Source: Rhodospirillales bacterium (GTDB lineage Bacteria > Pseudomonadota > Alphaproteobacteria > Rhodospirillales > Casp-alpha2). From it: a stretch of 64,000 nt of DNA. The notes beneath the pieces are model-generated. The model searched no databases and was not told the DNA's origin. It saw nothing but the letters and a program-made list of their open reading frames with translations. This document shows positions 11,367 through 60,872 of this stretch, piece after piece. Position 1 is the stretch's first letter. Each line of letters opens with the position of its first letter. Made by a program: the position numbers and the translations under genes. The DNA lies in NCBI GenBank assembly GCA_965198795.1, contig OZ240674.1, positions 1,540,522-1,604,521 of the forward strand, given 5' to 3'.

Positions 11367-14045
11367 TTAACGGATATTGACCAGTTCCTCGAGCAGTTCG
11401 TCAGAGGCGGTAATAACCCGTGTGGCCGCCGAGAAGGCTCGCTGGACGACGATGATTTTGGTGAATTCCTGACCGATATCGACGGTGGACGCCTCGGTCG
11501 AGGACTGGATGATCCGGCCGGCGGGGCCGTTGTTGGCGAACCGCAGCGTCGGGTCGCCAGACGCCTGCGTTGACGTGAAGACGTTGCCGGTTAACGCGTT
11601 CAGTTCGTTCGTGTTGGTGAAGGTGGCGACCGGAATTTGAAAGATCGGCCTCGTTTCACCAGTCGCGAACCGGGCGGTGACAAGCCCGTCCACCCCGATG
11701 GTCACGCCGGAAAATGAGCTAAACTCAGAACCGTCGGCCTGTTGGGAAACCTGTGTAAAGGTGCCGCTGAACTGGACCAAGCCGTTTTGTCCTCCGATGG
11801 TGCCGAAGTCCAGGTCGATCACACGCGTGTTTTCAGGGTCGCCGTCGAAGTTGGCGGCGCCGTTGGTGAGCCCCTCAATCCGGACCTGGTCGACGTTGAA
11901 CGCCGTGGGTATTCCAACCGCGTTGAAGATAATCTCGTTGGTTATGTCCACCACGGTCGGATTGCCCGCGCCGACAGGGATGGTCGAAGAGGGAACATTG
12001 CTGGACACCGTTCGCGGCGCGCCGGCGAAGTTCGAACTGAAGGAGACCTCATAGGGGCCGCTGTCCAGCGCGGACAGGACGAGCGTGTCGTTTGTTATGC
12101 CGGTGTCGGCGTCCTGGTTGGCCGCTCTCAGGCGAACCGTGTTTGAGCCTGCGGCGAATCGCGGATCCTGACCTTCGATCGCGGCCTCCAAATCGGCCAG
12201 AGTTCCGGCAAGATCGCCATTGACAATCGACACTACCAGATCGGCGCCGCTGTCGTCGGCCGCTTCGCCGGTGCCGAAGGTATAGGTGATGTCGTTGATG
12301 GTGATCGTGTCGCCAGTCACCGGTTGCGCCGTAAATTCGAACTGTGTGGTCGGCGCGAAATCGGAGGACACCTGATTCACCGTGAACATCGACCTTTGTT
12401 TTGTCGCCGACACGCCGGCCTCGGTCAACAGGCCGGACGGATCGACGATGATTTCATCCGATCCGTCCTCAACGAACAGAATGGTCGTCGCCGAGGACGG
12501 GGCCTGCCGGATGCGCTGGTTGATCTGGTCATAATCGGAATCGTGCGCGATCACCCTGGCGATCAGGCTGGCCACATCCTGAGCGGCCGTGGTGTTGCCT
12601 GAGACATCGATGATCTGGTTCGTTGCGTTGTTGCGCGAGTCCGTGGTCAAGGCGATCGTTTGCCCCCCCGTCACGGGGGTGCCGGTGGCGAGCAGGTTAA
12701 AGGTGACCGTTTGACCGCCCGTCTGGGGAGTGCCGGTGGCGGTCAAGACGCCGCCGCTGGTCACTCGGACGTTAGCGGTCCCGCCATCTGCGGAGACGCT
12801 GACCACGCTCACGGTCCTGCCGTCGTTCGCATTGCCGAAGCCGGAGAGGGTCAGAACGTCATCGGCGTCCAGGCCCGTGAACGTGCCAGCCGGGGCGCGG
12901 ATCTCGTCGGGGGCGCCGCCAGTGCCCAACACCAGGTCCAGCGTGCTGCCCATCGCAGAGGTGAAGCCCAAGAACCCGCCGCTCCGTTCGACGTCAACGA
13001 ACAAGCCGTTCGGATCGACGTTGGTCACCCTCACGGTCCTGCCGTCGTTCGCATTGCCGAAGTTGGAGAGGGTCAGAATATCACCGACGTTCAGGTCCGA
13101 GAACGTGTCGGCCAGGGCGGTGATCCGGTCGTGGTCGGTGTTGGCGCCGGCGCCCAATTGCAGGTTCAGCGAGTTGGGTCCCGAAGCGGAGAATCTCGAG
13201 AACAAAGACCGGTCGAAGACGTAGGTGACGCCGTCGACGACGACCGATCCGCCATCCGCGGAACGGGTTTTGAATTCCAGCTGACCGGTCGAGGCCGTCG
13301 TGGACGTCACGCCGTTGGTGACGTCCTCGAAAGTCGTCACCGTGGTGCCTTGCCGCGGTTCAAAGCCGAGGCCGAACTGGTTGTCCCGGCCTGTCGCCTC
13401 AAAGAGGAAGCCAATGGAACCGGGGTTGCCCAGGCTGTCGATGATCTGAACGTCGGTCCGGAAAGTATCGCCCGCGTCCGCGTTGGTCGGCAGGTTGGCG
13501 CCGATGGCGATGTTCGTGGTGGCCGTCGCCGTGCCGCCGACCCGCGCCAGATTGATGGTCGTCAGGAAGTCGGTCGAGATGACGTTCACGTTCGGCGTAA
13601 GAATGTCCGTGTTGTTCGGGATGATGTTGCCGAGCGCGTCCGTCGGGAAGCCTTGCAGGTAGAATCCCGCCGTGTTGCGCAGGAAGCCCCGGTTATCCTG
13701 GAAGAACTGACCGGCGCGGGTGAACAGGAAGCTGTCATCCAGGCCCGGAACCGCGGCCTCGTTGACGACGAAGAAACCGCCGCCGGAGATCGCGATGTCG
13801 GTCTGGGACGTGGTGGCCTGCAACAGACCTTGAACGCCCGTGTCGATCCGCGTCGCGCCCTGAACGCCGCCCGCCGAAAACAGCGTCCTGGACGTCTGCT
13901 GGGTGACCAGCGTCTGGAAGTTCACGTCAACGTTTTTATACCCCACCGTGTTGACGTTGACGATATTGTCCGAGAGAGCGCCGAGCGCGCTGGATTGAGC
14001 GGTCAGGCCGGAAACGCCAGAACTCAATGCACCGAAGAGACCCAT
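11367..14045 (-). CDS. flgE: Flagellar hook protein FlgE, oversized (892 aa) with a large central insertion
   Basis: N-terminus MGLFGALSSGVSGLTAQSSALGALSDNIVNVNTVGYK and C-terminus ..STVDIGQEFTKIIVVQRAFSAATRVITASDELLEELVNIR are canonical rod/hook terminal segments. Position is after flgD. Confidence 0.9.
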   Translation of the reverse strand: MGLFGALSSGVSGLTAQSSALGALSDNIVNVNTVGYKNVDVNFQTLVTQQTSRTLFSAGGVQGATRIDTGVQGLLQATTSQTDIAISGGGFFVVNEAAVPGLDDSFLFTRAGQFFQDNRGFLRNTAGFYLQGFPTDALGNIIPNNTDILTPNVNVISTDFLTTINLARVGGTATATTNIAIGANLPTNADAGDTFRTDVQIIDSLGNPGSIGFLFEATGRDNQFGLGFEPRQGTTVTTFEDVTNGVTSTTASTGQLEFKTRSADGGSVVVDGVTYVFDRSLFSRFSASGPNSLNLQLGAGANTDHDRITALADTFSDLNVGDILTLSNFGNANDGRTVRVTNVDPNGLFVDVERSGGFLGFTSAMGSTLDLVLGTGGAPDEIRAPAGTFTGLDADDVLTLSGFGNANDGRTVSVVSVSADGGTANVRVTSGGVLTATGTPQTGGQTVTFNLLATGTPVTGGQTIALTTDSRNNATNQIIDVSGNTTAAQDVASLIARVIAHDSDYDQINQRIRQAPSSATTILFVEDGSDEIIVDPSGLLTEAGVSATKQRSMFTVNQVSSDFAPTTQFEFTAQPVTGDTITINDITYTFGTGEAADDSGADLVVSIVNGDLAGTLADLEAAIEGQDPRFAAGSNTVRLRAANQDADTGITNDTLVLSALDSGPYEVSFSSNFAGAPRTVSSNVPSSTIPVGAGNPTVVDITNEIIFNAVGIPTAFNVDQVRIEGLTNGAANFDGDPENTRVIDLDFGTIGGQNGLVQFSGTFTQVSQQADGSEFSSFSGVTIGVDGLVTARFATGETRPIFQIPVATFTNTNELNALTGNVFTSTQASGDPTLRFANNGPAGRIIQSSTEASTVDIGQEFTKIIVVQRAFSAATRVITASDELLEELVNIR
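12808..13082 (-). repeat. 222-bp (74-aa) tandem duplication inside the flgE insertion
   Basis: A 33-nt identical core ctcacggtcctgccgtcgttcgcattgccgaag at 12808..12840 and 13030..13062, followed after 2 mismatches by ggagagggtcagaa. It encodes LTLS[NG]FGNANDGRTV[RS]V. Confidence 0.9.
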
Positions 14046-14166: not shown

Positions 14167-15129
14167 TTATGCCGGGCCGTCGCCGTCCGAAGCCGGCGTT
14201 TCCTCCGAAGCCGATGTTCCTTCCGAAGCGGATGTTCCTTTCGAAGCCGATGTTCCTTCCGAAGCGGATGTTCCTTTCGAAGCCGATGTTCCTTCCGAAG
14301 CGGATGTTCCTTTCGAAGCCGGCGTCCCTTCCGAAGCGGATGTTCCTTTCGAAGCCGGCGTTCCTTCCGAAGCGGATGTTCCTTTCGAAGCCGATGTTCC
14401 TTCCGAAGCGGATGTTCCTTCCGAAGCGGATGTTCCTTTCGAAGGCGTTGTTTCTTCCAAAGCGGGTGTTTTTTCGACCGACAGGAGGTTGGACTGCGGC
14501 GTGCGGACCGTGCCCATGAACAACGTGGTCTCGCCGTCCACAACGCCGGCGCCGGTGACCCGCCCGAAAGCGGATTGGAATACATCCAGCAGCTTGTCAT
14601 CGCGGTCCTTGGCGCTGACCTTGATCTTGTAGCGGCCGTCCGGCTGTTGAACGCCGTTTCTGTTCTGGCCGTCCCAGGTGAAGGCGTGAACGCCCGGTTC
14701 GGTTTCGCCCTCGGCGGTGAAGACCTCAACGCCCTCGCCGTTGGTCACCGAGATGGTGGTCGAAGCCGCGCCGTTCGGAATATTGTAGGTGATCCGGGCC
14801 GACGAGTTCTCCACGTTCACGTCCTGTCCGGCGTATTCGACCGTTGTGCCGATAAAGTCCACCAGGTTGGCGGTTTGCACGCCTTCTTGCAAAGTGATCA
14901 GCGTTTCCAGGTTGGAGTTCTGGAAGATGGCCTGTTCGACCTCGGCGAATTGCACCAATTGCGAGGTAAACTCGTTGGAGTCCATCGGATCCAGCGGGTC
15001 CTGGTTCTGCAACTGTGTCGTCAAAAGGGTCAGGAACCGGCTCAGGTCTTCCTCAAGGCGCTGTTTCGCCTGTGCGGACTGCGACGAACCATCCCCGGTG
15101 GGGGGGGTAATACCGCCTAAGAATGACAT
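14167..15129 (-). CDS. flgD: Hook-cap/assembly protein FlgD with a roughly 95-aa C-terminal Ser/Thr/Ala/Glu/Lys repeat tail
   Basis: ..FLTLLTTQLQNQDPLDPMDSNEFTSQLVQFAEVEQ.. is the FlgD N-domain signature, followed by an Ig-like region (..HAFTWDGQNRNGVQQPDGRYKIKV..). The tail is (GTSAS[EK])n. Confidence 0.8.
   Translation of the reverse strand: MSFLGGITPPTGDGSSQSAQAKQRLEEDLSRFLTLLTTQLQNQDPLDPMDSNEFTSQLVQFAEVEQAIFQNSNLETLITLQEGVQTANLVDFIGTTVEYAGQDVNVENSSARITYNIPNGAASTTISVTNGEGVEVFTAEGETEPGVHAFTWDGQNRNGVQQPDGRYKIKVSAKDRDDKLLDVFQSAFGRVTGAGVVDGETTLFMGTVRTPQSNLLSVEKTPALEETTPSKGTSASEGTSASEGTSASKGTSASEGTPASKGTSASEGTPASKGTSASEGTSASKGTSASEGTSASKGTSASEGTSASEETPASDGDGPA
14186..14483 (-). repeat. 18-bp (36-bp higher-order) in-frame tandem repeat, about 16 units
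   Basis: tccgaagc[cg]gatgttcc[tt] units are repeated head to tail. They encode GTSASE/GTSASK/GTPASK at the 3' end of flgD. Confidence 0.9.
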
Positions 15130-15163: not shown

Positions 15164-17074
15164 TTACGCGCGAACATCCACGCGTCCGTTGGTGATGACG
15201 CCCAGCTCATGGGCGGCGACGGCTTCGCCGGCGGAGTCCAGGAAGTCCTCATCGCCCTCATTGCCGCCGCCGGCGATTTCCTGATCTGGCTGGTTATTGT
15301 TTTCGCCTTTGAGGTTATAGTTCAGACCGTCCCTGGCCAAATCGAGGCCGGCGTCCGACAGCGCGCGCTGAAGTTCGGCCGAATCACGGCGCAGAATGTC
15401 CAGCGTTTCCTGACGCTCCGCCGTCACCGTGGCCACCGTGCGCCCTCCATCGACGGTTTGCAGTTTGATCTCCACGCGGCCCAATTCGGCTGGGTTGAGC
15501 TTGATGTTGATCTTGTCGGCGCCAAGCTTGACGGCCTTGGATATTTGCACTTGAACCTGGTCAACGACGGAGCCGCGAGCCGGCTGACGGGTCTGGCTGG
15601 CGAGCGTGGCGCGGAAATCCTGACTGGTCTGCTGCGTCTGGCTGGATGTTCCGGTTTGAGCCGTTTGGGCCTCGCCGCCGCCCGATTGCGCCTGGAAGCC
15701 GCTGGCGCCTGTGTTGTTGGCGCCGGTTTGTATGGTGGTTCTGGCAGCGTCGGCGGTCTGGCTGGCCGCTTGCGACGCCTGCGCGTTGGCCTGACCCTGA
15801 TTTGATTGGCCCTGCACGAACTGACCGCCGTTTTGAAGCACAGCGGCTGCGGCCGCTGCTTGGGCCTGCGGATTTTGCTGAGCGGTCTGCGCGTTGGTCT
15901 GCGCGTTGGTCTGGGCGGCGTCGGCGCCGTCGTCTGCCGCACCCTGGGAAGCCGCCATGACCGCGGCCTGAGCCGTCGCCGTGACCGTCGATGTGTTGGT
16001 CAGGGTGGCGGCTTCGCGGGTCACGGTCACATTGACCGCCAGCGGCCCATTGTTGCCCGCGGCGCTCGCCAGTTGGGCAACCTGCGGCTGAAGGCGTGAC
16101 TCGGCCTGACTCGCGCCGTCCGCAGCGCCTTGAGTAATTGCGTTCTGAACCGCCGCCCTGCTTTGAGCGGCGCGGGCGCTGTTTTCGCCGATGCCGAAGA
16201 CGCCCGCCCGAAGAACCTCGCTGGACGCTTCCTGGCCGCTGCGGGCGGCGGCTTGCGGATCAACGGCGCGAGAGGCGTCGCCAACCCGTCGCGCGGTCGC
16301 GACGCCCGTTGTTTGTTCCTGAAGCGCGGCTGGAATTTGGGCGGCTTGCCCAGCGTCGGCGGCGGGCGCGGTTTGCCCGGCGCCGTCGGCGGGCGCGGTT
16401 TGCTCAACGGCGCCGTCGGCGGGCGCGGTTTGCCCGGCGCCGTCGGCGGACGCGGTTTGCTCAACGCCGTCGGCGGGCGCGGTTTCCGCTACTAACTGGA
16501 GGGCCCTCCGTGGGGCGGTTTCCTGATCCGCGGCGCCTTGTCCCTCAGCCGCTGGGAATGACTCATCAGCGGCGCGGTCCGCGGCATCGTCCCGTTGCGT
16601 ATCGGACCCGCCGTCGCGATCCCGGGCGCCGGCGTTTTCGCCGCGACCGTCATCGCTTGAGCGGTCGCCGCGGTTCGATTCTCCGTCACGCTCGCCGCCG
16701 CCGGCATGGGCGCCGCCACGGTCACCACCGCTGCGGACATCTTCATCACGGCGCGAGGTCTCGCCGGCGCCGCTGGTGTTCCGTTCCCGGCTGTCTGCGC
16801 GGTTATCGTCCTGATTGGCGTCGCCGCCACGGTCGCGGGCCGCCGCGTCGCCGCGGTCATCGCGGAAGTCGTTGGAGGCGTTCGAGGTGACCTCGCCCAC
16901 GACGTCGGCCGCGTTCGGCGCGCTCAAGGAGTTCGCGCCGATGCGGTTGCCCAACTGATCGACGAGATCTTGGAAGGACGCGACCAGGACGGCCTGACTG
17001 GCGAAATCGCCGCGTTTGATAATGGGAGGGAGCTGCTGCGTGGAGCTGGTTTCGTTCACTGAAAGATCGGTCAT
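15164..17074 (-). CDS. fliK: Hook-length control protein FliK
   Basis: C-terminal Flg_hook-type block ..VQVQISKAVKLGADKINIKLNPAELGRVEIKLQTVDGGRTVATVTAERQETLDILRRDSAELQRALSDAGL... The centre is long, low-complexity and Ala/Gln/Asp-rich. Position is upstream of flgD. Confidence 0.8.
   Translation of the reverse strand: MTDLSVNETSSTQQLPPIIKRGDFASQAVLVASFQDLVDQLGNRIGANSLSAPNAADVVGEVTSNASNDFRDDRGDAAARDRGGDANQDDNRADSRERNTSGAGETSRRDEDVRSGGDRGGAHAGGGERDGESNRGDRSSDDGRGENAGARDRDGGSDTQRDDAADRAADESFPAAEGQGAADQETAPRRALQLVAETAPADGVEQTASADGAGQTAPADGAVEQTAPADGAGQTAPAADAGQAAQIPAALQEQTTGVATARRVGDASRAVDPQAAARSGQEASSEVLRAGVFGIGENSARAAQSRAAVQNAITQGAADGASQAESRLQPQVAQLASAAGNNGPLAVNVTVTREAATLTNTSTVTATAQAAVMAASQGAADDGADAAQTNAQTNAQTAQQNPQAQAAAAAAVLQNGGQFVQGQSNQGQANAQASQAASQTADAARTTIQTGANNTGASGFQAQSGGGEAQTAQTGTSSQTQQTSQDFRATLASQTRQPARGSVVDQVQVQISKAVKLGADKINIKLNPAELGRVEIKLQTVDGGRTVATVTAERQETLDILRRDSAELQRALSDAGLDLARDGLNYNLKGENNNQPDQEIAGGGNEGDEDFLDSAGEAVAAHELGVITNGRVDVRA
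16354..16486 (-). repeat. In-frame tandem repeat in fliK (TAPADGAGQ-type units)
   Basis: cgtcggcgggcgcggtttgc(ccgg/tcaacgg)cgc is repeated about 4-5 times. Confidence 0.75.
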
Positions 17075-17321: not shown

Positions 17322-18860
17322 TCAGAGCCGCGTTTCCATCTCGATCAGGGCCTGATCAATGACGCCCGCCCAATCGCCCGGCGCCGCTTGCCGGACCAGG
17401 ACGGCGCCGCCATACCAGGGAGTGCCGCTGGACTCCATGCCCCATCTCCAATCGGAGCCGAAAGGCAATAGGACGACGACGGGTTTGCCCAAGGCCCCGG
17501 CGAGGTGGGCGACGGCGGTATCGACCGAAACGACGAGATCAAGCGTCTCGATCAAGGCGGCGGTTTCCGCGAAATCGGTCAAATTCGCCGAGACGTCCAG
17601 AAAGCCGCCGGGCGGGTTCGGGTCTTTCGCCGGCAAATCTTTTTGAAGACTGACGACAGACAGCCCCGCCCTGGCCAGTCTGGTGATTTGGCCGGAAGGG
17701 CAACTGCGCTCCGCGCTCAAGCGCTTTTCGCCAAGGGCTTTCCAGCTCACGCCGACGCGGGGCTTGTCCGTTTCCGGTAATCTGGCGCGCCATGCCGTGA
17801 CGATTTCCGGCAGGGCGGATAGATAAGCCGCGCCATCCAGCGTGGCCGGGTTGACTCCCAAAACCCGCGGCAAGGACATGGCCGGGATATGAAGGTCATA
17901 TTGGGGAAGAGGCCGGCCGAACGCTTGGACCGAAATGGCAGGCTCCAGACAAGCGAGCAAGCGTTCCAGGGAAGGTTGAACAACCAATGACACGGTTCCG
18001 CCCCTTTTCGCGGCCTGCCGCGCAAAGCGGCAAAACTGGATGGTGTCGCCCAGACCTTGTTCCGCGTGAATGAGCAGATGGCGTTCCCCGAGCGCGCCGC
18101 CGTCCCAGACCGGCGTTTCCCAATCCCGCCAGAGGCTGACGCGTTCGCGTTCGCGCCACCGCGCTTCATAAGCCAGCCACGCGGCCCGCCAATCATCGGC
18201 CGTGACGGCGCTCAGCATCATGGCCTGGGCGCGATGAACGGCGCTCGGCGCATGATTCGGGTCAAGGGCCAAAACGCGTTCAAAGACGGCGAGAGCTTCG
18301 AACGCCTTATGCTGGTCGAGCAGACAATTCCCGAGATTATAAAGCACCGTCGCGGGAGGATCGGATATCCTGCGAAAAAGGGCTTCCGCCTCTTCAAGGC
18401 GTTGCAGATCACTTAGAACCAGCCCCAGCCGGTTCAGAAGGTTCATGTCGTCCGGGTATTCGGGAACCAGCGGCTCTAGAAGCGGAAGCGCTTTTTCCGG
18501 TTGATCCAGGCTCGCGTGACAAAAGCCCAGGCGCTTGTTCACGTCGTCGGAGGGAGCGACGGATTTGAGGCGTTCCAGGACCGGGAGGGCTTCCAGGAAA
18601 TCGCCGCTTGTTTCAAGGCAGAGGGCATAGACGTTCAGGTAGCCTGGATCGCCGTCCTTCCGGGCCCGGATCGGCGCCAGGACGTCTTTCGCCGATGGCG
18701 TGTCGCCGGATTGAAACAAGATCATGCCCATAAGGGTGATTATGTCCGGGTTCCCCGGATGCCGCTTAAGACCGGCTTTCAGGCGGGACAGAGCGTCGGG
18801 GGCGCGCCGCGCTTGAAGCATCCGCGCCGCCTCCGCGATCACGGTGTAGGGGTCAGCCAT
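17322..18860 (-). CDS. TPR-repeat protein fused to a GT-B (family-9/heptosyltransferase-like) glycosyltransferase domain
   Basis: N-terminal half has TPR-like repeats. C-terminal ..GLGDTIQFCRFA.. and ..VVSVDTAVAHLAGALGKPVVVLLPFGSDWRWG..TPWY.. resembles the GT9 C-terminal signature. Paralog of 50361..51878. Confidence 0.6.
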   Translation of the reverse strand: MADPYTVIAEAARMLQARRAPDALSRLKAGLKRHPGNPDIITLMGMILFQSGDTPSAKDVLAPIRARKDGDPGYLNVYALCLETSGDFLEALPVLERLKSVAPSDDVNKRLGFCHASLDQPEKALPLLEPLVPEYPDDMNLLNRLGLVLSDLQRLEEAEALFRRISDPPATVLYNLGNCLLDQHKAFEALAVFERVLALDPNHAPSAVHRAQAMMLSAVTADDWRAAWLAYEARWRERERVSLWRDWETPVWDGGALGERHLLIHAEQGLGDTIQFCRFARQAAKRGGTVSLVVQPSLERLLACLEPAISVQAFGRPLPQYDLHIPAMSLPRVLGVNPATLDGAAYLSALPEIVTAWRARLPETDKPRVGVSWKALGEKRLSAERSCPSGQITRLARAGLSVVSLQKDLPAKDPNPPGGFLDVSANLTDFAETAALIETLDLVVSVDTAVAHLAGALGKPVVVLLPFGSDWRWGMESSGTPWYGGAVLVRQAAPGDWAGVIDQALIEMETRL

Positions 18861-50323: not shown

Positions 50324-50361
50324 CTCCGTCGGCGGAAAGACCGCCGGCGGAGTTTCGTTTT
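50324..50361 (+). terminator. Intrinsic terminator after flagellin (possibly bidirectional)
   Basis: Stem ctccgtcggcgg / ccgccggcggag (one G-U pair), loop aaaga, then tttcgtttt. A second hairpin gaaggcg-cttt-cgccttc lies at 50287..50304. Confidence 0.7.
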
Positions 50362-51878
50362 CAAGCCGGGCCGTAAAGAGCGTCAACCATTTGTTTGACG
50401 GCTGACTCCCAATCCGATGGCGCTTCTTGACGGAAGAGCCGCGTCGCCGGATACCAAGGTGTTGTCCCGCCCGTTTGACCCCAGCGCCAATCGGCGACGA
50501 ACGGCAGCACGATCCAGGTCGTCAGGCCCATAGCGCCGGACAGGTGGGCGGCCGACGTGTCGACGGAGATGGTCAGGTCCAGCTTCGCCATCAACTTCGC
50601 CGTATCCGCGTAGTCCCTCAGCCCTTCAGACCAGTCGTCGAGTTTTCCGGCGAGGCCCTCAACGGAAATCTCTCCGGCGCCCCCCATTTGCAGGCTGACC
50701 CACCGCGCGCTGGTTCCATTGATCAGTGGCTTCAGAAAAGAGAGAGGCATGGATCTCTCCGCATCGGCCCGATGTTCGGGATTTCCGCGCCAAACCAGGC
50801 CGATTTTTTCGGGAGGCCAAGCCGGCGTTTTGATGTCCGGGCGCTCAAGATAGGGGGCGGGCGGCGAGTCGGAGGGAGACGGTTTTCCTAAAAGAAGCGG
50901 GAGGCTCATCAAAGGAACATGAAAGTCGGTTCGCGTCCGGATACGGGGAACATCCGAGGAATGGACGCCGTCGGCGCCGGACACGCCGGCCAAAAGGCGC
51001 GCGAGGGACGGCGGGCACACAAACTCGACGCGCCGGCAGCGTTCCCGAAGCGCCGCGAGATAGCGGACGAATTGAATGGTGTCGCCTTGACCCTGCTCGG
51101 CGTACACGCAAACGGATTTGCCTTCGACCGGCTGGCCGGTCCAAGGCTCCGCCTTCTCGACGCCCAATGGCGGAACAAGCAACCGCCGCCGCGCCTCAAA
51201 GGCTCTGTATCCGTCCTCCCACCGTTCAAGGCAAAGCAACGTCTGGGCTTTGTTCCATTGTGCGAGAAACGAGCCAGGATCCATTCGGGCCGCCTTTTCA
51301 AGCGTCTCGCACGCGGCCTCGAATTGGCCCAGGCGCTGTTGGCATAAACCCAGATTTATCAATAAGCTGGCGTCGTCCCGAATCCGCGCTGAAGCGTTCT
51401 CGAAATCGGTCAGGGCGTCGTGAAGCCGGTTCATGCGGTAGAACGCGTTTCCCCGATTGAATAACGCGCGTCCATGACGGGGGTCTTGCCGGATAATTTG
51501 GCTGAAGCCATTGATCGCGGCGGTGAAATCTCCGGCGTCATACGAGAGTCTGGCCAGATTAAACAAGGCGTCGCGATGGCCGGGATTGAATTCAACGGCT
51601 TTCTTCCATTGAGCCCGGGCGTCATGAGTCCGGTTCTGTGATTTCAGACAGACCCCGTAATTGTAGTGAATGTCTGATCTGCCGGGCAGGCGGACGAGAG
51701 CGTCTTCGTATAGCCCGGCGGCTTTCTCATGCTCGCCTTCCCGGTCCGCCAACACGGCCGACAGGTAAAAGGCTTCCGAAACGTCAGCGCCGCAAAGAGC
51801 GTCCGCGAGCTTTCGGGCTTCCCGCCTTTCTCCCGAGATTATGAGCCGCCTCAAATCGCCGACCCGGGGGGATGTCAT
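50361..51878 (-). CDS. TPR-repeat protein fused to a GT9-like GT-B glycosyltransferase domain (paralog of 17322..18860)
   Basis: TPR repeats in the N-terminal half. ..GQGDTIQFVRYL.. and ..TISVDTSAAHLSGAMGLTTWIVLPFVADWRWGQTGGTTPWY... Its start overlaps the maf stop. Confidence 0.6.
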   Translation of the reverse strand: MTSPRVGDLRRLIISGERREARKLADALCGADVSEAFYLSAVLADREGEHEKAAGLYEDALVRLPGRSDIHYNYGVCLKSQNRTHDARAQWKKAVEFNPGHRDALFNLARLSYDAGDFTAAINGFSQIIRQDPRHGRALFNRGNAFYRMNRLHDALTDFENASARIRDDASLLINLGLCQQRLGQFEAACETLEKAARMDPGSFLAQWNKAQTLLCLERWEDGYRAFEARRRLLVPPLGVEKAEPWTGQPVEGKSVCVYAEQGQGDTIQFVRYLAALRERCRRVEFVCPPSLARLLAGVSGADGVHSSDVPRIRTRTDFHVPLMSLPLLLGKPSPSDSPPAPYLERPDIKTPAWPPEKIGLVWRGNPEHRADAERSMPLSFLKPLINGTSARWVSLQMGGAGEISVEGLAGKLDDWSEGLRDYADTAKLMAKLDLTISVDTSAAHLSGAMGLTTWIVLPFVADWRWGQTGGTTPWYPATRLFRQEAPSDWESAVKQMVDALYGPA

Positions 51879-53869
51879 GAGGTGAAGGCCCCCTCGAAGA
51901 TGTCCTCTCCGTTATAAGCGGAAAGGTCCAGAATCTCTCCCCGGTCAAGAGCCTCGAAATTGATCCTGGCTTTTTCGGTCATCAGATCGATCACTGCGCA
52001 AGCTTCGTTGACGAACAGTTCCCGGAGCCGCTCCCGCTGGCTGTCTTCCACGCGGCTCATGTAGTAGTCGGCGCCGATGTTCATCATGTGGTAAGTGCCC
52101 CGCGTCATCATCGCGGCGAACAACTCCAGTCCCTCTTTCGGCTCCAAAAGGAGCGCCGAGGATTTGACTTGAAAATCCGGTCCATCAAGATGTCCCGCGT
52201 TCCGGAACGCGTCCTTGTAGGCGCCGGCCAGTGTTTCCAGAGACGCGAGCGTTTCTTGAACATTCCAGCAAGCGGCGAACATTTCCTCGGTGAATTCGCC
52301 GAAACTCTCGACAATATCGTTCGTCACTTCCGATTTATCCTTATCCAATGGAGCGAGATCCAGACCGCCGCCCAGCTTCGCGGTGGCGCCGTTCACGTAA
52401 ACGCCGTCGCTGCAATTGAACACCTTGCATCGTTTGTAGCGGTTTATCGCGCGTTGGAGCGAGTCCCGCGCCCAAAATAAGCCGTGAAAAGTATACGCCC
52501 TGCCCCCGAAATTGCCCGGAAGCTCGATACTGAAATCAGGATCCCAGTGGGGAGCGTCCTTTGAGTAATGGTAAACGTCGCCGTGGTGATGACGCTGGCC
52601 TTTCTTGCCCATATCAACGCCGAACATATAGATTTTCCTGAAATCCGCCGACTGAAGGAAAGAAAGCGCCGCGTTGGCCACGGTTGGGTCGGGATCCTCC
52701 AGGGTATGATTGACGTCGTTGCTGAACAGAGCGAACGGGGACAATCCCTGCCTGAAGAAGTAAACGCACCGCTTAAATATTCCCTTGATTTTCAAATCCA
52801 CCGTGACGGGACCGAGAAAAACGATGTCCGACAGGTCAAATTCGCCCGCCGCGTAATTAATGGTTTTATCGACGTCGAGGTTTTCAAGTTCGATATGGAT
52901 GTCGGGTCTGACGCCGGCGCGCAGCAGCGGCATCAGGGCGGTTCCGCAAGAGACAATCAGCGCGTTATTTTGCTGTTCCTTGATCGTCTCGAGATCATTT
53001 GATAGAGACGGACCCGAACCGATTAAAAAAACCGGAATGTTATCTTTATTTTTGTATCTCCGTGTAAATATTCGTGGCCGCCCACTCTTCAGGTTTGTGC
53101 AAGTATTGCTGATCATAAGGTTTTCATCATAGAAAAACCCAAGACCGGAAAGGTAAAGTCTCATGTTTTCCCTGAAATGATATGCCGATTTTTCCAAGAA
53201 AGGAGATTTATAGAGTTGAAATATGGAAACCCCATCCAGGGCGCAGGGATTATGAACTCTGGTCCGGTATCGAAAAATTTCAGCAAAATCGTTATCATTA
53301 TTTGATGGTAATAAAAACAAGTCCACATTATTATCTTGTAATTTTTGCAACAGGGAAAACCAATCCAGGACCGTCACGGAGTGAAAAACAAGTTCAAGGT
53401 TCGGCTCCTGGATCAATATATTGCGGGCGCGAAGCGTGTCGGCCAACTCTTCGATGTGAAGCCCGAGACCCAGGCCAAATAAGCATACATAGTATGAGTC
53501 GGTTGATTTTCTGTTTGGAGAAAACTGAATATTTTCCTCCTCTGCGGCGTCCAACACATTCTTCATGACGCGGCCCGCGTAACTGTCGAACGACGTCGGT
53601 TCTATTTTGTCTAGAGCTATTCTTGTGGGAGTCTCGAAAAAAGCGCTGAGCTTTTCGGCGGCGTAAGCTGCAGCGTCGCCGCCGAAAAAGGCCTTGTCCT
53701 GAAAGTAGATATCAAACGAGCCGTCGTCATGGACGCGGAGTTCCGTCTGGGGGGAGAGAGCGTCCAGTTTTTGCGTGACTTCGGGAAATTTTTGGCGGAA
53801 CGCGAAAAGGTTCCGTTCGCGGCGTTCTTCCAAATCTACGCCCCTCAAATTGATCGTCGGTCCACTCAC
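51875..53869 (-). CDS. maf: Motility accessory factor (Maf, DUF115/MptE-like), a putative flagellin nonulosonic-acid transferase
   Basis: ..IPVFLIGSGPSLSNDLETIKEQQNNALIVSCGTALMPLLRAGVRPDIHIELE.. matches the Maf/DUF115 core as I remember it. The roughly 660-aa size is typical of Maf. Confidence 0.75.
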   Translation of the reverse strand: MSGPTINLRGVDLEERRERNLFAFRQKFPEVTQKLDALSPQTELRVHDDGSFDIYFQDKAFFGGDAAAYAAEKLSAFFETPTRIALDKIEPTSFDSYAGRVMKNVLDAAEEENIQFSPNRKSTDSYYVCLFGLGLGLHIEELADTLRARNILIQEPNLELVFHSVTVLDWFSLLQKLQDNNVDLFLLPSNNDNDFAEIFRYRTRVHNPCALDGVSIFQLYKSPFLEKSAYHFRENMRLYLSGLGFFYDENLMISNTCTNLKSGRPRIFTRRYKNKDNIPVFLIGSGPSLSNDLETIKEQQNNALIVSCGTALMPLLRAGVRPDIHIELENLDVDKTINYAAGEFDLSDIVFLGPVTVDLKIKGIFKRCVYFFRQGLSPFALFSNDVNHTLEDPDPTVANAALSFLQSADFRKIYMFGVDMGKKGQRHHHGDVYHYSKDAPHWDPDFSIELPGNFGGRAYTFHGLFWARDSLQRAINRYKRCKVFNCSDGVYVNGATAKLGGGLDLAPLDKDKSEVTNDIVESFGEFTEEMFAACWNVQETLASLETLAGAYKDAFRNAGHLDGPDFQVKSSALLLEPKEGLELFAAMMTRGTYHMMNIGADYYMSRVEDSQRERLRELFVNEACAVIDLMTEKARINFEALDRGEILDLSAYNGEDIFEGAFTS

Positions 53870-54984: not shown

Positions 54985-57018
54985 TCAGTCGCCGGTTGAA
55001 CCGGCCAACTCCTCGTGACGGTTAATCAGGAATGTGTCCAGCGTCTGGGCCGTGATCAAGGGCTGGGTCAGGGGGGTGCTGTGCAATTCGCCGCGCAGGT
55101 TTTTTCGCAAGGCGGCCAGAGAATCGGGATCACTGACCAGTTGTTCGATTATGCCGGTCATCTCGCGGCGCGTTTCCCCCGAAAGCTGGCCGTTGGCGGC
55201 GGACATCAACACCCCGGAAGCGATCAATCCGGATAAACATGTTTCGCGATGAGAAACCACCGGCACACCCATAATCAAGGCTTCCGCCGTCCGGTAGCCA
55301 TCCGTGCGTCTTCCAAATTCCAGGAAAATATCGACGCTGGCGAAGAATCCCGGGTTTTTGCCATCGGGTAACGGTTCAACGAAATCCCAATCAAAACAGT
55401 CTTCGACGCCGTGATCGGCGGCGATCCGCCGGATGCGCGCGAATATTTCCTCGTCCCGTTTCGGCCCCCAAAGCACGCGCATTCCGGAACCTTCGAATGT
55501 CCGAAGAATATTTGCGACTTCCTCGAAATCCTGCGGCGTGTAATTGAAGAGATCGGCGCGCATACCGAAGGTCGGCGCCCCCTTCGCCACGATTGGGGCG
55601 TCGCCGGCCAGCGGGGACAACGCCTGCGATCCGGTCGTCCAAACGCCCAAAGGCGCGGCGACCAAATGGATGGAATCACGCGCGACCGCCGGCAGAGCGG
55701 CGACGTCGTGTTCGTACGCCAAAAATGAGTTGATGCCGGGCAGGGGGAAGCCATGCTTGAATGGCGGCCAGCACACTCGCATGGGTGCGTCGCTCCGCAG
55801 AAAAAGCTGAGGTCTGGATGGTTCCGTCGATATGGTCGCATCGATCAGAACATCGAGACCATCATTCTTCATTATGAGAGCGACAACTTCATCGTCGAGA
55901 TCTTGGATCTTGCGTGACTGGCTGGCCAATTCGCGCAACTTTTTTGTCATCTCGTCCGAAGACACGCTGTCTTCGTACAAGTGGACCTCGCAGCGGGTTT
56001 TGTTGTGTCCACCCAGAAAATCAGACAAAAACCGGGTCTCTTCGCAATGGTGGGTGGCGTTGGTGAGGTAACCGATGACCAAACGGCGTCCATTGAGAGG
56101 GGCCGGAGCCGGAGGCTCCTTTTCCACACTCAAGGGCGCTCTCTCGTGCATGGCGTCAAGGAAGAGTCGCGCCTCATCCGGATGCGTCGCCGTGAGGCAG
56201 GAACCGCGGACCGCTATCCGGCAAGACAACTCAAAAGAGTCGGGATCAAGTTTCAATGCCTCGCGATGCTGGAGAACGCCTTCCTCGATCTCTCCAATTT
56301 CATAACAGGCTTCGCCCAGCCAATAGCGGAACTCGGCGTTGTTCATGTCCTTTTTCACGCCATGGCTCAGCACGCCGAGCGCTTCCTTGTACAGACCATT
56401 GGTTTGATAGAGCTTTCCAACCGCCAGCAGACAGTCCAAATGGTCGGGATTCAGCCTGAGTTCACGAAGAAACCTGATTTCCGCCTCTTTGAAATCGCGT
56501 TTATCCGCGAACCTGACGCCCCGCGCGTAATCAAGAGACGGTCTTACTTCGGCGGCGGCGTTATAAAATCCCGTCAAATAGTCAGGCAGAAGCCCCTCAA
56601 TCTCGGGATGCGGTTCAAGCACGGTGGACAATTTGGCGAAATAAACGCCATCCGATAGATTTCCGACTTTAGTGTTAAGATTGGCCAGGGCCTCCGCGTA
56701 CTCGTACCTTTCAGGGTCCAGTTCATGAGCCTGCTTAAGAAAAGCTAGAGCACGGCCTTCCTCGCCGAGTTTTACGCTGGCCAGTCCCATAATGAAATAA
56801 AGTTCGGGAGCATCTGGATAGTTCCGAATTTCGACAGCGACTCTGTTTACGACTGTCTCCGTCTCGTCATTTTGGAGTCCTTCCAGAAGCTCGCGGATCA
56901 ATTCCAGGTAAGACAGCTCGGGAGCGATTGTTTCCGACATTTCCGACCCGCCCCCGTCAGACGCGATTCGTCCGGATGATGCGGATTTTTGTCTCGCGCC
57001 ACATGATTTTATGCTCAA
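54985..57018 (-). CDS. TPR-repeat protein fused to a GT41 (SPINDLY/O-GlcNAc-transferase-like) domain
   Basis: TPR repeats (..YFIMGLASVKLGEEGRALAFLKQAHELDP..). C-terminal ..TAEALIMGVPVVSHRETCLSGLIASGVL..LVSDPDSLAALRKNLRGEL..PL.. resembles the COG3914-type OGT C-terminus. Confidence 0.6.
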   Translation of the reverse strand: MSIKSCGARQKSASSGRIASDGGGSEMSETIAPELSYLELIRELLEGLQNDETETVVNRVAVEIRNYPDAPELYFIMGLASVKLGEEGRALAFLKQAHELDPERYEYAEALANLNTKVGNLSDGVYFAKLSTVLEPHPEIEGLLPDYLTGFYNAAAEVRPSLDYARGVRFADKRDFKEAEIRFLRELRLNPDHLDCLLAVGKLYQTNGLYKEALGVLSHGVKKDMNNAEFRYWLGEACYEIGEIEEGVLQHREALKLDPDSFELSCRIAVRGSCLTATHPDEARLFLDAMHERAPLSVEKEPPAPAPLNGRRLVIGYLTNATHHCEETRFLSDFLGGHNKTRCEVHLYEDSVSSDEMTKKLRELASQSRKIQDLDDEVVALIMKNDGLDVLIDATISTEPSRPQLFLRSDAPMRVCWPPFKHGFPLPGINSFLAYEHDVAALPAVARDSIHLVAAPLGVWTTGSQALSPLAGDAPIVAKGAPTFGMRADLFNYTPQDFEEVANILRTFEGSGMRVLWGPKRDEEIFARIRRIAADHGVEDCFDWDFVEPLPDGKNPGFFASVDIFLEFGRRTDGYRTAEALIMGVPVVSHRETCLSGLIASGVLMSAANGQLSGETRREMTGIIEQLVSDPDSLAALRKNLRGELHSTPLTQPLITAQTLDTFLINRHEELAGSTGD

Positions 57019-57647: not shown

Positions 57648-60600
57648 TTACAGGAATTGGAGGAGTGACAATTGCCGGACACGGGAGAAGGTTTGATATG
57701 ACGTTTCCAGTAAACGCTGTTCATTCAAAAGGTTAGTAATGGACTCCAGACGGTCCGCGTTTTCGACTCCCGCGATGCTGGTCTCGAAGAAATCAACAAG
57801 GTCTTCCGAGCGCTTGTTGGTGTCTTTGATGAGCACTCGATTGAACGCAAGCTCCATACGAAGCGTATCTACGTTGTCATTCAATTCCTCGCCGAACGGC
57901 GGCGGTTCGGTGTTCGTCGAGTCAAGCGCGTCGTTCAATAAGTAGAGCGCCTGCGTGACGCGCTCCGGATTCTGGTCCAGGCCGCCCTCGGAGCCATATT
58001 CTCCTTGCAGGATCAGGCGAGCCGCCCGAATGGCTTTTTCGAAGGCGGGGTTCGACGCATTGACGTCGAACTCGATCAATCTGTCGTTGCTTATCCTTTG
58101 ATTAATTGAGAGGTTGTCGCCGTTATAATAGGAATTGGCGGTGATGGCGCCGGATGTTAGCGGCGACGAGAGAAAGCCCGTGGTCGCGGAGCCCGTCGCC
58201 ATCACATCGTCACTCGACATTAAGGTGGCGGTGCTTCCGTCCGTCGAAACCGATTGAATGGTAAAGGTCAAACCGTCATTCGTGGTGCCCGTCCCGAGCA
58301 CTGTGAATTGCGTCCCGGCGGCCAAAAGATTGCCATCGGAGTCCCGGAAATCGCCATTCGACAAAGTGATCGAGTCCGCCGAGCCGCCGCCTTCCGTAAA
58401 GGTTATCGCTTGCTGAACGGTGGCCGCGCCGGTGCTTCGAAGGTTCTCGTTCGTCAGTGTGTCTCCGGTGACCAGCGTCGCGACATTACCCGCCGCATTC
58501 AAGCTCGCGATGGTGAAGGTGCCGTTGTTGTTGGCGGAGCCGGTAATGGTTATCCGGGTGTTCGCCCGCAGAGGATTTCCGTTCGAGTCCGTGAATGTTC
58601 CGTTGGACAGTGTGATCGTATCGGCGCTTGGGTTATTGTCGCTAAATGTGAATGACGGCACAGTAGTGACCGAACCTGCGGCTGTGGCGTCCGTTATGGT
58701 CAGAGCCGGCGAGCCGGCCAGGTCCGCTGTCCTGTTGTTGTTGCTAAGCGACGTGATGGTGAATATCCGGCCATCATTGGCGGTGCCCGTGCCGGCGACC
58801 TGGATCTGAGTTCCCGGCGGCAACGGCGCGCCGGATGAGTCCACGAATGATCCTCCGTTTGACAGGGTGATCCTGTTTGAGCCCAAGTTGGTAAAGGCGA
58901 TATCCGCCGCCGCCGGCGCGTTAAACATGAAGTTCGACGCGGCGGCGGCGTTGAACGTAAAGATCGGCGGGGCTGACGTATCAAATTGCGTCGCCGTATC
59001 CGCGTTGGACAGCGTGCCGGCGACACCCGCGACAGCAGTCACGGAGTCACCGCTTGATAGAGTGATCGTCGCGCCATTGGCCGAAATACCGGCGATGGTG
59101 AACACCTGGTTTCGGTTTGCGCCGGTCGCGGCGCCGCCGACACGGATTCGCTGTCCGATTTCGAAATTACTGAAGACATTGAGAGCGGGACTTGCGGTGA
59201 TCGTGTCCGCATCGGGAGCGTTGTCGTTGAACGTAATGGTCACGTCGGCCTGAAGGTTGGCGGTGTTCGTTGTTTCATTGGTGAGTGTATTCGCCGGTAT
59301 CAATGTCGCTGTCGTTCCATCCGCCGAGACCGAGGCAATGGTGTGCGTAGCGTTGTTCGACATGGTCGTCGTGGTGACGATCTGCGTGCCGCTGGGCAGT
59401 AGATTGCCCAACGAGTCGGTGAAGCGGGCGCCGCCGGTTAATCGAATGGTGTCCGGCGCCGCGCCGTTATCGGTAAAGATCGCCATCTCAGTGCTGGGAG
59501 AGGTGATGGCGAAGGTGAAGACATTGGTGTCGAAGTCAAACGCGTTGGCGCCTTGGATTGTCCCGTTTTGAACAGCGGAGGCCGCGACGACGCTGTCATT
59601 GGCCGAAAGGGTAAGCGTATTGTTGTTGGCGGAGATCGACGCCACGGTGAAGGTGCGCCCGTCGTTGTTCGTCCCGGTGCCTTGAATTTTGATCCTTTGA
59701 CCGACTTCCACCGCGGCGAACGCGTTGGACGCGAGAGGGGCGGTAATACTATCCGGTCCGGCGCCTCCATCGACGAAGTTGATCTGCTGATTGCCGCTAC
59801 CGGCCTTCAGTATCTGGCGTTCGCCCCCTAATGAGGTCAGCCGTTTACTTTGAACTGTCAGATTGGTTCCGTCGTTGGCGGCGACCGTGAAGGTGTTGTT
59901 GTTGCTGGTTGTGCCCGAGATGGCGATCACGCTGCCGACTGGAATGTCGGAAAGAGCGCCAGTTTCCGCCGCTGTGATCGTATTGGTTTGCCGGTCGAAG
60001 GAAACCTCCGCCGTCACGGTTTTATCGACCAGAGGCTCCAAACTTATTGGATAGGTGAATGTGGCGTTCAAGGGGTCGTCCACGGCGCCCGTCTCGTCAG
60101 TCAGTTGTTTGGTGACGACGTCGATGTAAAAGCCGTTCGGATCGACAGCCGCAATTGTGTAAGTCCCGTCATTGACGCCGTTCAAGGTTCCGGAAATGTT
60201 GATCGTGCCGCCGACGTCGGCGTTTTGAAATTGAGCGACGGACGAACTGATCCGGCTGTCGCCGCCACTGGTCGTGCCGGTGAAGGTGAGAAAGTTCGGG
60301 TCAAGAGTGTCAGGGTTGTTATTGATGGTGAAGTCCGCCAGCGCCGCATTGCGGGTCGTTGGAACCGTTACGGTCGAACCATTGAATACGGATTGGAACG
60401 CCGCTTTGGTTGTGAGGCCTAGATCTATGGGTTCGGTTGTCGCTCTGCCGCCTCCGAATATGAAACCGCGGTCGTCCTCGGTGTTCAGCAATCCCTCAAG
60501 ATTCAAGAGCATCCGGAAAGCGTTGTCCTGAATTTTATTTGTCTTGGTTTCGCTGGAAACGCCGAAATTCTGATGATATGTGTTCAGTAGCTTACGAAAA

Positions 60601-60872
60601 TTCCCGATGTCGTCATTGATCCCTTTCAGTGTGGTTTCCTGCACCTTAAGGCGGAGATCGGCAATCTCGTTGTTGGTTTGAAATCTCTCAAGACTGTCGC
60701 GGGTAGTTTCCATATCCAGCAGACGCTGGCTGACGCCGGTCTCCAGACCGCTGTAGACCTGGGCTTTCTTTTGAGATGAGGTCTGTTGATTCAGAGAAAA
60801 TAGATTCGTCTGCGTCAACAACAGCCGGTTAATGATCGCCTGACTGGATGCGAGTGTGCCGAGACGGGTCAT
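57648..60872 (-). CDS. flgL: Hook-filament junction protein FlgL (HAP3), giant 1074-aa form
   Basis: N-terminus MTRLGTLASSQAIINRLLLTQTNLFSLNQQTSSQKKAQVYSGL and C-terminus ..LLNEQRLLETSYQTFSRVRQLSLLQFL are FlgL/flagellin-type termini. Immediately follows flgK. Confidence 0.85.
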   Translation of the reverse strand: MTRLGTLASSQAIINRLLLTQTNLFSLNQQTSSQKKAQVYSGLETGVSQRLLDMETTRDSLERFQTNNEIADLRLKVQETTLKGINDDIGNFRKLLNTYHQNFGVSSETKTNKIQDNAFRMLLNLEGLLNTEDDRGFIFGGGRATTEPIDLGLTTKAAFQSVFNGSTVTVPTTRNAALADFTINNNPDTLDPNFLTFTGTTSGGDSRISSSVAQFQNADVGGTINISGTLNGVNDGTYTIAAVDPNGFYIDVVTKQLTDETGAVDDPLNATFTYPISLEPLVDKTVTAEVSFDRQTNTITAAETGALSDIPVGSVIAISGTTSNNNTFTVAANDGTNLTVQSKRLTSLGGERQILKAGSGNQQINFVDGGAGPDSITAPLASNAFAAVEVGQRIKIQGTGTNNDGRTFTVASISANNNTLTLSANDSVVAASAVQNGTIQGANAFDFDTNVFTFAITSPSTEMAIFTDNGAAPDTIRLTGGARFTDSLGNLLPSGTQIVTTTTMSNNATHTIASVSADGTTATLIPANTLTNETTNTANLQADVTITFNDNAPDADTITASPALNVFSNFEIGQRIRVGGAATGANRNQVFTIAGISANGATITLSSGDSVTAVAGVAGTLSNADTATQFDTSAPPIFTFNAAAASNFMFNAPAAADIAFTNLGSNRITLSNGGSFVDSSGAPLPPGTQIQVAGTGTANDGRIFTITSLSNNNRTADLAGSPALTITDATAAGSVTTVPSFTFSDNNPSADTITLSNGTFTDSNGNPLRANTRITITGSANNNGTFTIASLNAAGNVATLVTGDTLTNENLRSTGAATVQQAITFTEGGGSADSITLSNGDFRDSDGNLLAAGTQFTVLGTGTTNDGLTFTIQSVSTDGSTATLMSSDDVMATGSATTGFLSSPLTSGAITANSYYNGDNLSINQRISNDRLIEFDVNASNPAFEKAIRAARLILQGEYGSEGGLDQNPERVTQALYLLNDALDSTNTEPPPFGEELNDNVDTLRMELAFNRVLIKDTNKRSEDLVDFFETSIAGVENADRLESITNLLNEQRLLETSYQTFSRVRQLSLLQFL
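58217..60280 (-). repeat. Array of at least 8 divergent protein-level repeats (NDG module) forming the FlgL insertion
   Basis: Recurrent pattern [hydrophobic]xxGxxIx[VI]xGTGxxNDGx[FY]T[IV]xSxSxxGxTATL. Examples: GQRIKIQGTGTNNDGRTFTVASISANNNTLTL, GTQIQVAGTGTANDGRIFTITSLSNNNRTADL, GTQFTVLGTGTTNDGLTFTIQSVSTDGSTATL. Coordinates are approximate. Confidence 0.8.

Follow-up and report, generated by a model that had tools for sequence, protein, structure and literature searches.

Why does a flagellar hook-cap protein from a marine-type alphaproteobacterium of the Rhodospirillales end in about 100 residues of near-identical hexapeptides, and does this extension serve a function? The question is raised by one open reading frame in a 64,000-nucleotide stretch of the genome, called the window below; all coordinates refer to it. 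An earlier reading of the bare sequence (the original prediction) identified the frame as flgD and proposed that its tail is disordered, unexpected for such a protein and an obvious candidate for O-glycosylation. Here we examine the identity of the gene, the organization of the repeat and the reliability of its assembled length, and then compare the tail with those of other FlgD proteins and weigh the explanations for it.

Identity of the gene

The open reading frame at 14167-15129 on the minus strand encodes a genuine FlgD hook-cap protein, as originally predicted. In the ORF list and its translation it has 320 amino acids, with the stop codon at 14167-14169. Residues 12-75 match PF03963 (Pfam FlgD; E = 1.3e-19, 70.6 bits versus a cut-off of 27) and residues 109-176 match PF13860 (Pfam FlgD_ig; 1e-13). 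Several NCBIfam FlgD models also match the product, and phmmer matches residues 6-207 to Salmonella FlgD, 7bhq, at 1e-17. When the AF2 model is used as a Foldseek query, the best matches of the core are the Salmonella hook-cap structures 7bhq and 7eha; these two, 3c12 and 3osv are all matched at a probability of 1.00, and the matches include Xanthomonas and Pseudomonas FlgD domains. The model predicts helices at residues 17-40 and 64-90 and has pLDDT >90 at residues 91-220, with a last beta-strand at 215-219. The neighboring genes agree with the assignment, in the order fliK - flgD - flgE, all on the minus strand:

14167-15129, minus strand: flgD coding sequence, 320 aa (ORF list; Pfam FlgD and FlgD_ig, NCBIfam and PDB FlgD matches)
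14905-15096, minus strand: N-terminal FlgD domain, residues 12-75, stalk and export region (PF03963, AF2 helices)
14473-14859, minus strand: beta-rich Tudor/Fn-III (Ig-like) cap domain, residues 91-219 (AF2, PF13860, Foldseek)
11367-14045, minus strand: flgE, 892 aa, 121 nt downstream of the flgD stop (Pfam Flg_bb_rod, LlgE_F_G_D1 and Flg_bbr_C; NCBIfam FlgE)
15164-17074, minus strand: fliK, 636 aa, same operon, upstream of flgD (Pfam Flg_hook)

The query thus shares with Salmonella FlgD (7bhq/7eha) the N-terminal FlgD domain, the Tudor/Fn-III beta domain and the position between fliK and flgE. The Salmonella protein stops at residue 232 and is ordered to its end (PMC8595650), whereas the query continues for 101 further residues that are predicted to be disordered. 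As a separate observation, oversized FlgE proteins (about 700-1344 aa) are the rule in this Rhodospirillales clade (loci L001-L092), and 892 aa is not unusual among them.

Organization of the repeat array

Residues 220-315 of FlgD are 16 hexapeptide units in register, starting directly after the last beta-strand, which ends at residue 219. The expected extension of about 95 residues made of GTSASE, GTSASK and GTPASK is therefore present, and in the direction of translation it has the following parts:

14437-14472, minus strand: two degenerate leading units, KTPALE and ETTPSK (14/18 and 15/18 nt identity to core units)
14203-14436, minus strand: homogeneous core, 13 units of 18 nt, with GTSASE x9, GTSASK x3 and GTPASK x2 (TRF, unit alignment)
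14185-14202, minus strand: degenerate trailing unit ETPASD (13/18 nt identity to a core unit)
14167-14184, minus strand: non-repeat C-terminus GDGPA and TAA stop (translation)

From the FlgD core to 14167 the frame runs on with no in-frame stop before 14167-14169, and the units are 18 nt long; both the uninterrupted translation and the preservation of the frame on gain or loss of units were anticipated correctly. Eight GTSASE units have identical DNA, GGAACATCCGCTTCGGAA, and individual 31-mers are present up to 5 times within the array. In a six-frame translation of the 3.12-Mb genome, the motif GT[SP]AS[EKD] occurs 13 times in the array and twice elsewhere. Among arrays with a period of <60 nt, that of flgD has the highest score in the genome.

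The original description was of a near-perfect 18-bp array. The repeat itself stands, but 18 bp is not the best period. TRF reports period 18 with 15.4 copies and 83% matches (14186-14463), and period 36 with 6.6 copies, 95% matches and a score of 422 (14206-14444). Units ending in Glu and units ending in Lys alternate, and they differ at the Glu/Lys codon and at one synonymous Ser codon; thus, the unit that was amplified is 36 nt long, and a higher-order repeat of one E-unit plus one K-unit describes the array better.

The tail of about 100 residues is predicted to be intrinsically disordered, in line with the earlier claim: in the AF2 model, residues 221-320 have pLDDT 47-60 and no secondary structure, versus >90 in the core. 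Its 101 residues include S26, T17, A16, G15, E11, K7 and P6, with a net charge of -6, so that 43 of the 101 are Ser or Thr. The codons differ from those of the rest of the genome as well. GC3 falls to 0.41 in the tail, from 0.80 in the flgD core (17 reference genes: 0.73). Of the 101 tail codons, 40 are GCT, ACA or GGA, each of which accounts for 10-12% of its synonymous codons in the reference genes. Off-genome codon usage together with identical copies is most simply explained by recent amplification of one founder unit. The view of the array as young or homogenized and prone to slippage is thus well supported, by the eight identical units, the rare codons and the degenerate edges. The mRNA of the array shows no folding advantage over shuffled sequences (z = +1.93).

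Reliability of the assembled length

Four public short-read runs carry the locus, in the form of k=31 contigs that break inside the array, and the array flanks show no differences across the four. For the repeat unitigs, we took the depth relative to that of the flanks and set it against the number of times that the same 31-mers occur in the assembly. Three runs from one sample give observed and expected values of 3.53 and 3.39, 3.79 and 3.91, 2.99 and 3.16, 3.21 and 3.16, and 4.02 and 3.91. This agreement makes the assembled array length credible. The run from a second sample, X2, gives lower values, 2.68 versus 3.91 expected and 1.75 versus 3.16 expected. A shorter array could produce such ratios, but the single-copy contigs of this run span 362-640 and the signal is at most suggestive.

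It is very improbable that the array length is an assembly artefact, with the repeat collapsed or inflated, or that the tail is untranslated. Contigs break inside the array in 4/4 runs, so that the copy number could not come from short reads alone; against this, the genome is assembled as a single 3.12-Mb contig, the depths fit the assembled multiplicities in the three runs and the reading frame is uninterrupted from the FlgD core to 14167. A 36-mer of the array had no match in the metagenome_contigs or genome_contigs collections, and a search for an RNA run gave none. We also observed that an X2 contig is broken inside flgE at 11997-12029, where the other three runs are continuous, and that X2 is more fragmented overall, which hints at strain heterogeneity in the second sample.

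C-terminal tails of other FlgD proteins

Among about 120 closest database homologues, the tail that follows the conserved LSV strand has a median length of about 10 residues, and only the query, P0003 and P0005 have tails of >40 residues. The short tails of relatives end in ...SVEEAPQVEETP or similar. The nearest homologue, P0002 (77% identity, 221 aa), apparently has no tail, a shortness that the end of its contig could explain. No protein sharing the GTSAS[EK] tail was found in 5.8 billion clustered proteins, and the exact tailed protein had no match in a 15-billion-protein collection.

For a wider view, the core of the query without its tail was searched against 1.84 billion cluster representatives, which gave 11,627 FlgD homologues, and 148 of the best 150 were examined. 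Tails are <=15 aa in 91 of the 148 and 16-30 aa in 10, while about 18 (~12%) carry low-complexity tails of >30 aa, 3 of them >90 aa. At least 17 of the 148 have one or more extra copies of an Ig-like module. Describing the tail as unexpected was therefore an overstatement: additions at this end of FlgD recur. The tails that have arisen independently among relatives include PDPEPE repeats, GDGADA repeats, an ST-rich tail and a 69-aa (DDSTTTT)n tail; others are poly-Ser, a twice-repeated 27-aa K/E/S/T unit, a 126-aa Ala-rich tail and a Pro/Asn-rich tail. Over residues 1-206, P0003 and P0005 do not differ at all, whereas a 12-aa indel and about 12 substitutions separate their tails; thus, FlgD tails evolve much faster than the body of the protein.

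The tailed proteins P0003/P0005, P0189, P0179, P0211 and L064, of which we found no description in the papers searched, have the same attachment point as the query, right after the ...LSV strand. Their tails are likewise disordered and S/T/D/E/G/A/P-rich, several are tandem-repeated, and they evolve fast between near-identical strains. They are unrelated in sequence to that of the query, whose GTSAS[EK] unit is unique to its genome. The query tail has a mixed E/K charge, as opposed to purely acidic tails, and its DNA is the most regular and youngest-looking of the cases seen. The FlgD array is best seen as an extreme, young case of a common, tolerated and fast-evolving C-terminal add-on. The extra-module proteins form a further group: P0123, P0127, P0128, P0140, P0169 and P0177 are FlgDs of 307-485 aa with one or two extra Ig-like/Tudor modules, and the presence of such modules in many representatives indicates that the 'petal' domain of the cap has been duplicated repeatedly.

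Origin and tolerance of the tail

We consider it probable that the tail is a disordered product of slippage, largely neutral or mildly helpful (for example, for solubility) and free of sequence-specific function. In this view, flgD ends in a young in-frame minisatellite whose 16 units of 18 nt are arranged in 36-nt double units, and replication slippage or unequal recombination would have expanded it from the short Thr/Pro/Glu-rich tail found in this clade of the Rhodospirillales. A homogeneous center with degenerate edges is what slippage or unequal exchange would be expected to leave. The leading units KTPALE and ETTPSK, probable remnants of a short ancestral T/P/E-rich tail, resemble the short tails of relatives, and the array thus appears to have grown from such a tail. 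Once translated, it would add about 100 residues of a disordered, very soluble Gly/Thr/Ser/Ala/Glu/Lys polyampholyte, and a pentameric cap would bear five of these flexible tails.

What is known of FlgD in other bacteria suggests how the addition may be tolerated. FlgD is among the early substrates exported by the flagellar type III apparatus. It lacks the C-terminal D0 helix and export signal of FlgE, FlgG and FlgC, and removal of residues 191-232 from the Salmonella protein leaves its export at the level of wild type (PMC10936197). The stalk of the pentameric cap, without which capping fails, consists of the N-terminal helices, and the outer petals are the C-terminal domains (PMC8595650). 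A tail on a protein that is exported unfolded, needs no C-terminal export signal or D0 helix and has its C-terminus in the outer petals would thus be expected to do little harm. The Salmonella C-terminal region does touch the beta9-beta10 loop of the neighboring subunit (PMC8595650), and a tail emerging at this contact may therefore not be without effect. We also expect the array to be polymorphic in length within the species, changing by 18 or 36 nt at a time from one strain to another.

Possible glycosylation and spacer functions

The composition of the tail invites other readings. The original prediction counted four candidate protein glycosyltransferases at the locus, and the window does encode Maf and three TPR proteins, two of which have GT-like C-terminal parts:

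51875-53869: Maf, candidate protein glycosyltransferase
17322-18860: TPR protein, GT9-like, candidate glycosyltransferase
54985-57018: TPR protein, GT41-like, candidate glycosyltransferase
50361-51878: TPR protein, candidate glycosyltransferase

With these enzymes encoded nearby, the tail could be an O-glycosylation acceptor, in which Maf or a TPR-glycosyltransferase adds a nonulosonic-acid-type sugar to Ser or Thr in the cytoplasm, before export. A predicted disordered and accessible tail with 43 Ser/Thr among 101 residues suits such a role, and the independent FlgD tails of other lineages are often S/T-rich; other long tails are Ala-rich, Pro-rich or purely acidic, however, so that richness in Ser and Thr is not a requirement. 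We surveyed the co-occurrence of Maf (Maf_flag10_N, PF20157) with FlgD tail length, counting tails of >=28 aa as long. Maf is absent from all 8 genomes with long tails and present in 8 of the 23 with short ones, and the FlgD tails of Maf-bearing close relatives are 8-13 aa. The association runs opposite to the one that would favor glycosylation, and co-occurrence with Maf was rejected as support. The established flagellar glycosyltransferases, Maf and FlmG, recognize flagellin and are not known to act on FlgD, and literature searches turned up no relevant report on glycosylated FlgD or on FlgD C-terminal tails. What connects the glycosyltransferases of the window with FlgD is the composition of the tail, and we regard its glycosylation as unlikely; calling it an obvious candidate went too far. 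The more specific proposal, that the tail is the dedicated acceptor of Maf or of one TPR-glycosyltransferase paralogue, that FlgD is heavily decorated with a nonulosonic-acid-type sugar and that repeat number sets the glycan load, is slightly more doubtful still. If true, it would extend glycosylation to a hook-cap protein for the first time and give a flagellar glycosylation island its first substrate other than flagellin. Periplasmic O-glycosylation of the PglL type can be dismissed, as FlgD passes through the flagellar channel and bypasses the periplasm.

Selection on length rather than on chemistry has about the same low standing in our assessment. Here the tail would be a length-tuned entropic spacer or bristle that enlarges the cap, retains or guides the 892-aa FlgE, or keeps FlgD soluble before export. 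Its composition resembles that of engineered unstructured solubility polymers of G, T, S, A, E and P, flgD adjoins the gene for an oversized FlgE, and the C-terminal domain of FlgD contributes to efficient hook assembly (PMC8595650). Yet FlgE length, which spans 417-1344 aa in 83 related loci, is not linked to the length of the FlgD tail, and FlgEs of 1040, 1085 and 1344 aa are paired with FlgD tails of 11, 10 and 8 aa; this comparison rules out a long tail as a need of a large hook. The closest homologues lack this tail, and rare-codon, un-ameliorated tail DNA favors a recent origin over a long-maintained function. The slippage-born, tolerated tail remains the explanation that we prefer, although the S/T/acidic richness of the independent tails could reflect a shared selected property (glycosylation, solubility or channel passage) and not neutrality.

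Comparison with other repeat systems

The array has the DNA features of the in-frame VNTRs of bacterial secreted or surface proteins: near-identical head-to-tail units of multiple-of-3 length (18 nt, 36 nt), a homogenized center, degenerate edges and a secreted host protein. Such VNTRs are defined by copy-number polymorphism, whereas the flgD array is known here from one assembled length. FlgD is exposed only transiently and is then shed, which makes antigenic variation an unlikely driver. In phase-variable contingency loci, a change in the repeat switches a gene on or off; the flgD array differs, and on/off phase variation was ruled out, as in-frame 18-nt units at the 3' end of the gene leave the FlgD core intact.

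In the serine-rich repeat glycoproteins of Gram-positive bacteria (Fap1, GspB and Srr1/2), Ser-rich repeats are densely modified with O-linked glycans in the cytoplasm, before the proteins are exported. The query shares with them a long region of Ser-rich repeats and has a weak, sub-threshold match to an NCBIfam serine-rich-protein model. The Gram-positive proteins rely on accessory Sec export, an LPXTG anchor and dipeptide repeats over hundreds to thousands of residues; the query has hexapeptides over about 100 residues, a flagellar type III route with the N-terminal export region of FlgD, the end ...ETPASDGDGPA in place of an LPXTG motif and only putative glycosylation. The linker of the hook-length ruler FliK is closer to hand. 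It too is disordered, repeat-prone and part of an early flagellar export substrate, and fliK in the window has its own 27-nt array (16341-16485, TRF). The FliK linker reportedly has a demonstrated role in measuring hook length, a role neither known nor suggested for the FlgD tail.

Significance

Taken alone, the array is of little import: a lineage-specific, probably near-neutral expansion on the dispensable end of a transient assembly protein. Its wider interest is that it marks the FlgD C-terminus as a recurrent add-on hot spot across bacteria, for low-complexity tails as well as extra Ig-like modules, which is consistent with FlgD needing no C-terminal export signal. The same end of the protein is thereby marked as a natural site for fusions to be exported via the flagellar system. 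Strains of the organism could be typed by the array, and the tail provides an uncomplicated natural case in which to ask whether a flagellar glycosylation island modifies proteins beyond flagellin.

Other repeats and open frames in the window

About 16 distinct arrays with a TRF score of >=200 are present genome-wide (3.12 Mb), and 3 of these lie within 15.6 kb at the flagellar locus, at 846-1026 (in a Pro-rich ORF), 14186-14463 (flgD) and 16341-16485 (fliK). All three are in frame; by a rough hand estimate, chance would place about 0.08 arrays there. An open frame of at least 537 codons lies at 1-1611 on the minus strand, downstream of flhF; it starts with (PPSS)n and contains repeats of the TPGAL(A/T)TPGAPATSA type. 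These repeats are also T/S/P/A/G-rich, and a 320-aa sub-ORF of the frame has no Pfam match. Near the other end of the window, between the gene for the GT41-like TPR protein and flgK, lies a 1074-aa ORF (57648-60872, minus strand) with no Pfam match at E <=1e-5.
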